Positions 4,622 to 9,290 of a DNA stretch of 44,305 nt are shown here, in pieces. This DNA comes from a virus. The notes under the pieces are model-generated. The model did not search any database. It saw nothing but the letters and a program-made list of their open reading frames with translations, and was not told the DNA's origin. Position 1 is the stretch's first letter; each line of letters opens with the position of its first letter. The translations under genes were made by a program, and so were the position numbers. The stretch spans positions 1-44,305 of the IMG/VR virus record IMGVR_UViG_3300037200_000146. One strand, 5' to 3'.

Positions 4622-5238
4622 TTCTCTTCACCGAGGATTCTGGCTTCGGCGGCTTTAAATCCTTGTTCATATCCGACAAGATAAGTATGCCTCGCGATGT
4701 TGTGAGCTTGATCTCCGGTCACGGTTACTGGGATTTCATAAGAGGTTTCCCATGATTTATTAAAGGCAGTGTACGCCGCACGCGATTGTTCCAGCATTTG
4801 CTCTGTAGCCATCCTCGATGCGGTGACGGGACGGATTCGATCTCGAAGCCAGCGGGAACATGCCCAAAATCCACAATCCCAAGCCCATTCTTTTGGATGC
4901 GATTGAGTCGGCTGATTATGGCATTGGGCTTTTATTTCCTCCTCGCTCGGCATCGTGAATGAGGCGGGCTTAGTGGAAATAGCCACAAGCTGGCTCCAAT
5001 TGGACTCGAGCTGTTGCTCCATGACAGAGCGAACCTCTTTTGAGCAAGCCTGTATATGGGAAAACTGACTCATATAAGCTTTTTTAGTGATCGTGATAGT
5101 CTCCAAATCCAGCCCATCCCTGTCAAACTCAACGCCCGAATGCTCAGCGGTCGCGGAGAAAGCGACCTGTTCCTGAATCTTTTTTATAGTTTCCTTTGAT
5201 GATTCAACGAAAGCTTTGCCCCGCTCATCGTCACTCAT
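4618..5238 (-). CDS. Hypothetical protein
   Basis: Start taken at MSDDERGK (ATG 5238, ATGA overlap with the upstream stop). The track ORF extends to 5265. Confidence 0.55.
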   Translation of the reverse strand: MSDDERGKAFVESSKETIKKIQEQVAFSATAEHSGVEFDRDGLDLETITITKKAYMSQFSHIQACSKEVRSVMEQQLESNWSQLVAISTKPASFTMPSEEEIKAQCHNQPTQSHPKEWAWDCGFWACSRWLRDRIRPVTASRMATEQMLEQSRAAYTAFNKSWETSYEIPVTVTGDQAHNIARHTYLVGYEQGFKAAEARILGEEK

Positions 5239-6829: not shown

Positions 6830-7023
6830 TAAATTAATCCTTTCTCTTTTAGAACCGCTTTTATTTGAAACCTAATTTGATGCCATTTGTTTATGTCCAA
6901 TGTTTTATGGAGCCATAATAAATAATCTGGATCATATTCCACGATGTCCTTTAGTTTCTTTCCCTTATAGGCACCAAAATCTAATTCCTCATTCATCGCT
7001 TTATAAACATAAGGCTCAACCAT
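6829..7023 (-). CDS. DUF3820-like small protein (FGKYKGK...DPDYLLWL motif)
   Basis: Contains DFGAYKGKKLKDIVEYDPDYLLWL. Confidence 0.5.
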   Translation of the reverse strand: MVEPYVYKAMNEELDFGAYKGKKLKDIVEYDPDYLLWLHKTLDINKWHQIRFQIKAVLKEKGLI

Positions 7024-7981
7024 GAGGCGGAGTTGTTTTCCTATTTTTCAACATGTAAGAACAAAAAGAATCGACTTTATCGATGGGTAAATCGTGAAGG
7101 GAATCGATGCTTAAATATTGTTTAATGCTTGCGTGGATATCATTTTTATTCCAGTTGGCCTCGTTGGCCGTTCCATAAATCTTTTGAAGCTGTTTGTAAT
7201 CAAGCCTTTTCTTTTCCTCTAAGGGCTCAAGGAAATCATTAATGGGAGGTGGTTCATTGGGGGGTGGTTCATTGGAGGGTGGAGGGTCTAAGGAAGTGGT
7301 AGTGGGGTATGTGACGGAAGTCGAGACTGAAGATATCTCCGTTTGCGGGGATGTAGGCGAAGCTGAAGGAGGTATTAGGTTTTTTTTTGGATCTTCCTCT
7401 GGAGGAGGGGTGACGTCTTTTACATCTGGCATTTCTTCTTTAACATATAGACCGCTTAAATGTTGTGGAAAGGCTTTACGAAGGGCAAGGGCTTCGGCGA
7501 CCTTTGCTAACATGAGGGCTGGTTTCTCATGCCACATTTTTGTAAGTTCGCCTGTTTGTTTTCGTAGAGCGTATTCATTGAAATGAGCTACGGCCCAGAG
7601 AGGCTCTTTAAAATCCGAACGAAGAATGCCAACTTTAGCGGCTTCAGGCGTGGCATCTCCTTTCCAAAAATCAGACCATTTACCATCCATTCCGCACCAA
7701 AGAGGGCCGAGTTGTCCTGCATATTTTCCGCTGCGTTCTGCAACAAGCCGCTGGCCATCGATTGATATTTGAGGGGTCATTTTTGCAACTTTTTGTTTTA
7801 ATTCTGGATCATAATCCCAGCGTTTTATGCAATAGATTTGACGAAGGAAGGGATCAAGCCCGGTTACTTCGCAAATGTGGAGGAATAACTTTAATTCATC
7901 GTCCGTGGCACCCTTGGCAATTTGGCGCTTGATCAAAGATATTTGTTCAAGTGGCAGGCCTGATTTGGCTATTTCATTCAT
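7016..7981 (-). CDS. recT: RecT/Bet-family single-strand annealing recombinase with a Pro-rich C-terminal tail
   Basis: Contains DDELKLFLHICEVTGLDPFLRQIY, ISIDGQRLVAERSG and KPALMLAKVAEALALRKAFP. Confidence 0.85.
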   Translation of the reverse strand: MNEIAKSGLPLEQISLIKRQIAKGATDDELKLFLHICEVTGLDPFLRQIYCIKRWDYDPELKQKVAKMTPQISIDGQRLVAERSGKYAGQLGPLWCGMDGKWSDFWKGDATPEAAKVGILRSDFKEPLWAVAHFNEYALRKQTGELTKMWHEKPALMLAKVAEALALRKAFPQHLSGLYVKEEMPDVKDVTPPPEEDPKKNLIPPSASPTSPQTEISSVSTSVTYPTTTSLDPPPSNEPPPNEPPPINDFLEPLEEKKRLDYKQLQKIYGTANEANWNKNDIHASIKQYLSIDSLHDLPIDKVDSFCSYMLKNRKTTPPHG

Positions 7982-8023
7982 TCTACTTACCTAGGCATGA
8001 GTAACAAAATATGTCAACGGATT

Positions 8024-8051
8024 TTGTCATAACAGATTTTCTTGTATTAAG
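8024..8051 (+). promoter_or_regulatory. Candidate sigma70-type promoter for the rightward arm
   Basis: TTGTCA (8024..8029), then a 15-16 nt spacer, then TG-T-ATTAAG / TATTAA (8043..8051). Confidence 0.3.
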
Positions 8052-8059
8052 TGCCATTT

Positions 8060-8780
8060 TCCTTTTCAATTCTTGCCCCGAGCAGAGCAGAGGGTACGAG
8101 AGGGTACTTCCCTATATGAGAAGTAGGTTGTTTTAAACGAGGCGACAAGCTCTTTGATGTCGGGCTTTAACCGACTTATGCCGTAACCCCCTTGCGCGAG
8201 GATGGTCTGGTTCCAGAGGCCCCCTATGGCGTGTTACCCAGATGTAACGGTCATTGCTGTCTCTCTTGCCCGTCGCTTTCGCTTTCGGTCTTCGAGTAAT
8301 AGTTGTGGCCCAGCCTTTCAAATGGGGAGACCCCCCCAATAGGCTTGCTTCTGCGCGTTTTTGGTTACGGTGCCCGCGTGCCATGCCAATAAGGCATTCT
8401 ATTTGCGGCTCTTCCCAGCATCGGCTATTTTCGAATTGATTTTTGACACCGACTTAGGTATCTTGGATCTATTCGAACTTGCATTCAAATACCCTAAGGC
8501 CTCGATTCGGAGTTGTAAAGACCCGGATCGGGGCTTTTCGGTATTTATTTTCCATGCTAGTCAAAAGATTCCTATAGCGGCGTGGAATAAGCTGTGGCTC
8601 CTCGGTTCTTGAAGACCGCAGAGGACTAGAAGGGTTAGGAGATGTCGAAAGACTGAGAATAGTCCCGGCCACTGGAGACACGCATGGAGAAGGAGCTACA
8701 CATCCATTTCACCGAACTGTAAGCTTAAGGTGAAATAGCCGGGGTAGCGCCCGGCCTATAGGAACTTTAATGCCCTTTTT
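8060..8780 (+). ncRNA. Candidate large structured non-coding RNA (class unknown)
   Basis: About 720 nt with no convincing ORF and visibly more G+C than the flanks. Local hairpins include gtcgg-gctttaa-ccgac (8159..8175), gttac-ccagat-gtaac (8232..8247), ttcacc...ggtgaa (8708..8733) and gccggg-gtagcg-cccggc (8739..8756). It lies directly upstream of a tRNA. Strand is inferred from context only. Confidence 0.3.
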
Positions 8781-8784
8781 TTGA

Positions 8785-8875
8785 TGAGGAGTACCCGAGT
8801 TGGTAGCAGGGACCGGACTGTTAATCCGGTGGAGTGAAATATCTCCCGCCGCACGTTCGAGTCGTGCCTCCTCAG
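8785..8875 (+). tRNA. Type II (long variable arm) tRNA; hand-folded anticodon is GUU
   Basis: Acceptor tgaggag/ctcctca (7 bp). D arm is ccc-gagttggtagca-ggg. Anticodon stem ccgga/tccgg with loop CTGTTAA. Variable arm ggag-tgaaatat-ctcc. T arm gcacg-TTCGAGT-cgtgc. Discriminator is G and no CCA is encoded. Confidence 0.75.
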
Positions 8876-8921
8876 ATTCCCTAGTTTTTAGTTATAGCGA
8901 GTTTAGGGTAAATTATCCCAA

Positions 8922-9290
8922 ATGCCTTATACTTTGGAATTCGAGATCCCAGGCCTGCCAAAGCTTATTAATGCCCAATCCAGAGGCCACTGGGCCGTTG
9001 GATGGCGAGAGGCTAAGAAATGGAAGTTCGCTGTTCGCATGTTCGCACGACCTAATCGCCCCGAGATCCCTTTAAAAAGGGCACGGATAACTCTTACGAG
9101 ATTTTCGTGCTCAAAGTCCGGTCCTGACGTAGATAACCTCGCGGGCTCTTGGAAACATGTGCAGGACGGCCTAAAAGACGCTGGGATCATCGAGGACGAC
9201 TCACCCGCGCATATTGAGGCCATTTACGAATGGAGGCCTTGTGGGCGCGGCCAGGGCCGGATAAGGGTAAAAATTGAGGAGATAAATTGA
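8922..9290 (+). CDS. rusA: RusA-family Holliday junction resolvase
   Basis: Contains PDVDNLAGSWKHVQDGLKDAGIIEDDSPAHI, followed by GRIRVKIEE. Confidence 0.8.
   Translation: MPYTLEFEIPGLPKLINAQSRGHWAVGWREAKKWKFAVRMFARPNRPEIPLKRARITLTRFSCSKSGPDVDNLAGSWKHVQDGLKDAGIIEDDSPAHIEAIYEWRPCGRGQGRIRVKIEEIN

Follow-up and report, generated by a model that had tools for sequence, protein, structure and literature searches.

Lambda tR', the leader terminator situated behind PR', and the dicBF operon of Qin-type prophages, whose non-coding modules yield DicF (Rfam RF00039), are familiar non-coding elements of phage operons. The large ornate RNAs GOLLD and ROOL, the latter with an average length of 581 nt (PMC2864571, PMC5737381, PMC12286853), are often found near tRNAs and in prophages (PMC5737381). 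The replication origin (ori) of the lactococcal Ceduovirus phages is a non-coding stretch between divergent early and late gene blocks, which works without phage proteins (PMC7150918). This ori is flanked by two early promoters and supports plasmid replication. Transcription from an early promoter yields a non-coding RNA (PE1-T), which is needed for replication. The ori occurs in three unrelated, interchangeable types, termed c2, bIL67 and 923 (PMC7150918).

The window analysed here, i.e., the whole stretch of 44,305 bp, is a complete virus record with terminal repeats (IMG/VR record IMGVR_UViG_3300037200_000146). Leftward genes extend from approximately position 8000 down through the start of the record, the first of them encoding RecT. 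The rightward arm begins with a 91-nt tRNA (8785-8875), continues with a RusA-like resolvase and then runs on into the structural genes. At 52% identity, the major capsid protein resembles its counterpart in the Bdellovibrio phage phi1422, but the early regions of the two phages differ; based on this degree of resemblance, the host of the window phage is uncertain. Further capsid relatives (51-67% identity) reside on phage-sized contigs (L019-L022), which were binned with metagenome-assembled genomes labelled as Peribacteria, WWE3, Leptospiraceae and Bdellovibrionales. These contigs are probably mis-binned, and therefore, their bin labels are unsafe for host assignment. The early regions of the capsid-related phage contigs in the four metagenome-assembled genomes are different and do not contain the element described below.

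Between RecT and RusA lies a gap (8060-8780), for which a first-pass annotation had proposed a single structured RNA of about 0.7 kb, transcribed as the beginning of the rightward arm and abutting the tRNA. A tRNA gene indeed adjoins the end of the gap, starting at 8785. Yet, instead of one RNA the gap comprises five segments with different histories, and a terminator-like hairpin as well as a 169-nt phage-specific insertion intervene between the tRNA and the conserved part. Judged from its alignment, this conserved part is a discrete non-coding module, which is conserved above the neighbouring genes.

Two sources of comparison are used throughout. The sister phage (IMGVR_UViG_3300037136_000114, termed G001; its locus, L002) is a complete genome of 45.5 kb and 97% identical to the window in RecT, tRNA and RusA. 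L034 and L035 are two Logan contigs that were reached via RusA homologues and are identical to each other over the conserved element; in RusA they share 52% identity with the window, and they harbour ERF in place of RecT. The features of the locus are as follows (window coordinates, unless stated otherwise):

7016-7981, leftward: RecT (Pfam RecT, E 8e-29).
7983-8057, minus strand: small ORF directly upstream of RecT, 24 aa here and 40 aa in the sister phage (L002 2278-2400, minus strand).
8062-8489, no strand assigned: conserved non-coding element of ~430 nt, defined by the nhmmer match to L034 4212-4623.
8089-8107, plus strand: tandem AGAGGGTAC, two copies 10 nt apart, overlapping conserved block A.
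8159-8175, plus strand: candidate hairpin, stem GUCGG/CCGAC and loop GCUUUAA, identified by manual inspection of the alignment and contained in the minimum free energy (MFE) fold of the window.
8352-8423 region, plus strand: candidate helix 8352-8357/8375-8380 with two compensatory pairs, enclosing an invariant 17-nt loop.
8430-8486, no strand assigned: segment weakly similar in the window, the sister phage and L034, from the alignments.
8487-8553, plus strand: long hairpin of 7 + 18 pairs (-36.1 kcal/mol) followed by AUUUAUUUU, from fold z-scores.
8566-8734, no strand assigned: 169-nt insertion, in this phage only.
8735-8784, plus strand: conserved 5' leader of the tRNA with hairpin 8739-8756 and a T7 run, a block 97% identical in the sister phage.
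8785-8875, plus strand: 91-nt tRNA with a long variable arm (type II body) and the Asn anticodon GUU (ARAGORN; Rfam tRNA, 50.5 bits).
8922-9290, rightward: RusA-like resolvase (PHROG 34).
L002 2423-3656 in the sister phage, leftward: two-gene cassette (321 aa and 149 aa), which occupies the slot of the element.

The first-pass annotation was right in finding no credible gene in the gap: the ORFs comprise at most 83 aa, overlap each other and match no Pfam or PHROG family. In an identical Logan contig the gene caller also left the RecT-RusA interval empty, and stop-codon recoding under alternative genetic codes opened no long frame in the gap. The features put forward in favour of a structured RNA fared unequally. 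The G+C content is raised (0.501 vs. 0.439 for the genome, 95th percentile of 721-nt windows), but this is not specific for the gap, as the G+C-rich island extends past it through the tRNA and RusA to ~9350 (G+C there 0.523). Short perfect hairpins are present, but their number of 7 does not exceed chance (dinucleotide-shuffle mean 5.35, with 27% of the shuffles reaching 7; genome windows average 6.3). The repeat GAGGGTAC is real, its two copies in the genome being those at 8090-8097 and 8100-8107; the exact repetition of AGAGGGTAC is found in this phage only. A sliding local fold scan yielded z-scores near 0 throughout the gap save for hairpin 8487-8546, which was absent from the hairpins listed initially. 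Since this hairpin is the sole local outlier, the z-score of the whole region (-2.85, from 20 shuffles only) is probably owed largely to it. G+C content and short hairpins are uninformative here; the real signals are the single long hairpin and the conservation seen in a distant relative.

Affiliation of the gap with GOLLD, ROOL, group I introns, tmRNA or RNase P, as considered previously, is contradicted by Rfam cmscan, which finds the tRNA alone, even at E up to 10: within 7900-9000 the tRNA (50.5 bits) was accompanied by two chance-level matches, and the sister locus gave the same result. Within the reach of these models, group I and II introns, tmRNA, RNase P, OLE, raiA, HEARO and DicF of Rfam 15 gave no covariance-model match either, and cmscan of the whole window against Rfam 15 at gathering thresholds returned 0 matches. 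This whole-window run missed even the tRNA, which scored 50.5 bits in the 1.1-kb run (gathering threshold, 29); long-arm tRNAs can escape detection when fast filters are applied to long inputs.

The right part of the gap is headed by hairpin 8487-8546, the only one that folds far above chance (z -5.5 to -6.9 on the plus strand, -2.8 on the minus strand). The hairpin is 92% identical in the sister phage, where the changes retain pairing via G-U, and its tail AUUUAUUUU overlaps the final stem pairs. By sequence, the hairpin resembles an intrinsic terminator or attenuator placed where the rightward arm begins; a simple terminator scan missed it, because stem and tail are beyond the limits of the scan. 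The following insertion (8566-8734) folds at chance level (z -0.1) and has no homologue in any collection searched; the sister phage has ~12 nt in its place. Within the insertion a 12-codon ORF, MEKELHIHFTEL (8684-8722), is preceded by GGAG at 6-nt spacing. In the adjacent hairpin 8739-8756, G-U changes in the sister phage leave five of the six pairs intact, which holds for the plus strand only. Since both hairpins keep such plus-only G-U pairing, 8487-8784 probably serves as a transcribed leader for the tRNA together with the rightward arm. The tRNA itself is identical in the sister phage (L002 3864-3954), and over its 5' half it matches tRNA-Asn from phiKZ-like Pseudomonas phages at 88-93% identity. 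The tRNA-Asn of L034 and L035 is an ordinary one of 78 nt, which is encoded on the other strand at a distance of 2.5 kb from the element, compared to 296 nt in the window.

The left part of the gap contains the conserved element. Using nhmmer, window 8062-8489 aligns with L034 4212-4623 at E 1.5e-28 (blastn E 3e-18). The site in L034 is also gene-free, lies between two leftward genes in the same orientation relative to RusA as in the window, and extends up to the ribosome-binding site of the leftward gene that follows. The element and 49 nt of RusA are the only DNA-level matches between the window and the L034/L035 loci, and the element shows a DNA identity of 66%, compared to 57% for RusA and 56% for a shared 109-aa gene. 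The G+C content of the element is 0.47-0.50 (L034 copy 0.47, 75th percentile). Identity is concentrated in runs of 15, 9, 21, 9, 17 and 14 nt (8080-8094, 8163-8171, 8270-8290, 8302-8310, 8357-8373 and 8412-8425), which alternate with stretches of 20-50% identity and many indels.

Codon-periodic substitution, which had been named as the sign that would speak against an RNA, is absent from the only homologue of the element. Mismatches fall on the codon phases as 43/40/51 (p = 0.47), whereas the two flanking genes used as controls show a third-position excess (p = 0.002 each). The gap runs of the alignment (6, 6, 2, 7, 3 and 7, 2, 1, 3, 5, 16, 6) are mostly not multiples of three. A 106-codon minus-strand frame of the window is split in two by stops in L034, a 105-codon plus-strand frame of L034 is devoid of an ATG and is interrupted in the window by two stops and one frameshift, and no open frame is common to the two copies. 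The 83-aa ORF, compared with 1.84 billion protein representatives, matched only low-complexity stretches of long proteins. Codon-usage scores of the gap ORFs are at off-frame level, yet this scoring is not discriminating, since the score of RusA, a genuine gene, is close to zero as well.

Next to the right border, segment 8430-8486 is located just upstream, in the leftward sense, of either the element or the two-gene cassette in all three phages, and as judged from these alignments is a probable promoter region. A sigma-70 consensus scan of 8062-8489 on both strands found no site, a consensus which may not be that of the host. In L034 the first leftward gene and RusA are separated by a 76-nt divergent spacer (4925-5000), which contains GTTACAG repeats and the near-palindrome GTTACAGTGTAAC; by its sequence the spacer looks like an operator and has no counterpart in the window.

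A third copy of the element was not found in any collection searched, leaving two distinct sequences in total. Both copies were compared with 50,697 GenBank phage records (blastn, word size 11), which yielded no match except for the tRNA, and GenBank plasmids contained no copy either. Scanning IMG/VR with four words of the region, including the two best-conserved blocks, was empty or at chance level, and a metagenome scan with a 20-mer of the hairpin gave one chance match in a high-GC bacterial contig. The element was likewise not found in a word scan of genome contigs, among 80 RusA-linked IMG/VR loci (nhmmer) or in 3 x 401 genomes of three phyla. The gene-free gaps beside the closer RusA homologues L033 and L038 have no colinear words in common with the element, the short contigs of other RusA homologues were uninformative in this respect, and word-based protein searches starting from two neighbouring genes retrieved known relatives only.

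The comparison with the sister phage places the element in a mosaic genome. Only three pieces of the gap are common to the two phages, namely 7990-8066, 8490-8565 (92% identity) and 8735-8900. The first piece is 97% identical to L002 2285-2361 and is accounted for by the small ORF 7983-8057, the stop codon of which overlaps the RecT start (TAGAATG). The C-terminal 23 residues of this ORF are shared with the sister phage, and the N-terminus is different, since a mosaic junction lies inside the ORF. In place of 8067-8489 the sister phage contains 1370 nt with two leftward genes coding for proteins of 321 and 149 aa. The possibility that the element is a decayed copy of these genes was rejected, as tblastn and tblastx revealed no similarity to them in the window. 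Over the whole genomes, which are 89-99% identical along most of their length, 19 window-specific segments of 60-1066 nt were counted, and in terms of sequence the lineage is exchanging modules very actively. Some of these segments coincide with an HNH cassette and with the C-terminal domain of the portal protein.

The two proteins encoded by the sister cassette have no match in Pfam, PHROGs, NCBIfam or PDB sequence searches; the 149-aa protein carries a CxxC...CxxC motif. The N-terminus of the 321-aa protein aligns with Lin1244_N at E 0.14 (13.3 bits, below the cut-off of 25). This domain, which we take to be that of phage replisome organisers, gives only a hint from sequence that the cassette may play a role in replication. 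A single-sequence AlphaFold model of the 321-aa protein was unusable (pLDDT 38.5). As the sister genes have neither a family match nor a usable structure model, the argument that the modules in this slot perform equivalent functions is weak.

Taken together, the gap, a mosaic of modules with separate histories, would represent the divergent control region of a complete 44-kb phage. In this arrangement 8487-8784 would constitute the 5' leader of the rightward arm, composed of the terminator-like hairpin, the phage-specific insertion and the conserved tRNA leader. The element 8062-8489 would stand at the head of the leftward early operon, beside RecT in the window and one gene further in within the phage that carries ERF. 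We tentatively favour the view that the element is an origin-like or cis-acting, swappable module of this operon, which would be transcribed leftward together with the early genes and act either as an RNA or as an RNA-dependent DNA site. The most specific guess would be a host-dependent, transcription-primed replication origin modelled on the Ceduovirus ori with its PE1-T transcript, and such an origin-like element would fill the slot that a two-gene cassette occupies in a near-identical sister phage. The element may correspond to an RNA-dependent origin of the c2 type or, alternatively, to a processed leader RNA. Among ~23 early-arm proteins scanned with Pfam and PHROGs no replication initiator, helicase or primase was recognised. 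Several features argue against an origin: the element is not A+T-rich, by eye it contains no iteron array or DnaA box, unlike typical origins, and the L034 copy is located one gene inside the operon, away from the point of divergence. The cumulative GC skew has its minimum near 6.5 kb, yet it tracks the orientation of the genes and gives no decisive indication of an origin.

The direction in which the element is read separates the two main RNA-based alternatives. The earlier assignment to a rightward transcript is not supported for the element, which lies between two leftward genes in L034 and has an A/T skew matching leftward-transcribed DNA. Over 8150-8449 this skew is -0.33, a sign typical of leftward genes, with a minus strand that is A-rich like sense strands. 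Based on the operon position in L034, the skew and the upstream segment 8430-8486, leftward transcription of the element with the early operon is most likely. A rightward reading is indicated by plus-only G-U pairs in helices that join conserved blocks, and by the terminator-like hairpin directly after the element, which is kept in the sister phage that lacks the element and has no counterpart in L034.

On the rightward reading, the element would be an independent, trans-acting gene for a structured plus-strand RNA of ~430-490 nt, which ends at the 8487-8546 terminator. We consider this explanation doubtful, albeit with a number of observations in its favour. The conservation pattern of blocks and variable hairpins fits such a gene, the G+C content is raised in the window phage and a strong terminator-like hairpin marks the 3' end. 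The counterpart of hairpin 8159-8175 in L034 is GAGAG/CUCUC, where three of the five pairs are changed on both sides and the loop GCUUUAA is invariant, and helix 8352-8357/8375-8380 contributes its two compensatory pairs. The invariant blocks 8080-8098 and 8264-8288 can pair together. Likewise, invariant 8418-8423 offers a pairing partner for the loop bases 8368-8373; an insert of variable length lies between the two, and this pairing spans a hairpin found only in the window. Both pairings require plus-strand G-U, and G-U pairs that are workable on the plus strand only occur in several of the candidate helices linking invariant blocks.

Folding of the aligned copies is less favourable to a plus-strand gene. 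The consensus fold reaches a z-score of -2.2 on the plus strand, but the minus strand is equal or better (-2.8), the local z-scores are ~0 across the element, and the structure conservation index (SCI) is 0.43 (n = 2 distinct sequences). Compensatory pairs number 9, against an average of 7.9 and a maximum of 14 in column-shuffled alignments (n = 2 sequences); with only two distinct sequences in existence, covariation is not statistically established. Furthermore, the predicted L034 fold favours a pairing that competes with hairpin 8159-8175. Of other candidates, helix 8180-8188/8363-8371 (P = 0.92 in the window) was rejected due to three mismatches in L034 upon checking by hand, and a tolerant enumeration of conserved stems was discarded, since it produced hundreds of spurious stems. 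All in all, the alignment is no more than suggestive of a conserved RNA fold in the element. The genomic context likewise speaks against a plus-strand gene: in L034 no plus-strand terminator follows the element, so that the RNA would enter a gene in antisense, the G+C content there is not notably raised (0.47, 75th percentile), and the terminator hairpin of the window is also present in the sister without the element. Moreover, no plus-strand promoter is recognisable in a sigma-70 consensus scan, although this consensus may not be that of the host.

The earlier suggestion of a large RNA of some new kind survives in part: a conserved element that does not code for protein is real, but its compensatory pairs are not above those of shuffled alignments. 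In its boldest form, this suggestion would make the element a new class of large phage RNA that takes over, as RNA, the job of the two sister proteins, perhaps in the start of replication or in anti-host-defence, which we consider unlikely.

In the leftward direction, the element could also be a cis-regulatory, processed leader or intercistronic RNA on the minus strand, which would control antitermination, processing, stability or translation of the downstream genes of the early operon, or yield small RNAs. Orientation and position relative to the leftward genes are alike in both phages, the L034 copy is intercistronic and reaches the next ribosome-binding site, and the A-rich minus strand and its consensus z-score of -2.8 are in agreement with this role. 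Nevertheless, an RNA confined to such a role seems rather unlikely. Rfam yields no match to DicF or any leader family, the element is devoid of a minus-strand terminator/antiterminator pair, and an exchange with a two-gene cassette is not obviously expected for a leader. Antitermination sites of the lambda nut or HK022 put type were not found in the element; the boxA-like GCTCTTTGA, situated 2 nt before hairpin 8159-8175, is present on the plus strand only, i.e., the strand opposite to the leader, and is not conserved in L034.

It is improbable that the element is functionless passenger DNA, be it the remnant of a decayed gene or the result of a recent recombinational transfer. In favour of this, mosaicism is high in the lineage, where 19 window-specific segments were counted relative to a 97%-identical sister, and the neighbouring insertion 8566-8734 lacks a homologue and folds at chance level. 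However, divergence in the element is strongly uneven, and the presence of identical runs of 14-21 nt beside indel-rich segments of 20-45% identity argues for constraint rather than uniform decay or recent transfer. The element is also better conserved than the flanking protein genes and contains no trace of a shared reading frame. Finally, small proteins overlooked by the gene callers are very improbable: there are ORFs of 41-83 aa on both strands, the 12-codon ORF with its GGAG (8684-8722) and the 24-codon ORF 7983-8057 that is partly common to the sister, but neither periodicity, shared frames nor family matches were found, the 83-aa ORF has low-complexity matches only, and codon usage is at off-frame level, though RusA also scores poorly.

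The reading as an origin-like or cis-acting module can be placed among the systems outlined at the beginning. With GOLLD and ROOL the element shares a length of several hundred nt, the lack of coding capacity, the location in a phage genome and a tRNA gene in the neighbourhood. In contrast, its conserved part spans ~430 nt, compared to 581 nt for ROOL, and gives no covariance-model match at E up to 10; it is separated from the tRNA by a hairpin and the 169-nt insertion, and a multi-junction fold is not demonstrated. The resemblance to lambda tR' concerns the flanking hairpin 8487-8546, which has a U-rich tail, precedes the first rightward gene, is kept in both sister phages and shows plus-strand-specific pairing; on the other hand, neither an antiterminator of the Q or N kind nor a conserved site of the nut or qut type was identified. 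Similar to the DicF-yielding modules of dicBF, the element is a conserved, RNA-like non-coding sequence in an early-left operon and intercistronic in one of two phages, yet it is far longer than DicF and has no Rfam match.

By position and behaviour, the non-coding Ceduovirus ori fits as the closest described analogue of the element. The differences are evident: blastn against GenBank phages reveals no sequence match to the c2, bIL67 or 923 ori, the element is not A+T-rich, its L034 copy is located one gene inside the operon, and a consensus scan found no sigma-70-like site in it, a consensus that may not be the host's. Moreover, the alternative module in the sister phage consists of two protein genes rather than another non-coding ori. 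Like the Ceduovirus ori, however, the region in the window is gene-free, contains no ORF with a ribosome-binding site and is situated where the divergent blocks meet and the early operon begins; in both cases unrelated modules are interchangeable among otherwise similar phages. Should the element be a functional RNA or an RNA-dependent origin, the phage pair would represent a natural experiment, in which 430 nt of non-coding DNA stand against two proteins. Pairs of this kind are rare, and in them function is directly testable by module swapping. If an RNA does the job of the sister's protein cassette, both modules would be natural swap partners and directly comparable. As a functional RNA or origin, the element would add a family missing from Rfam to the growing set of non-coding modules that head early operons.
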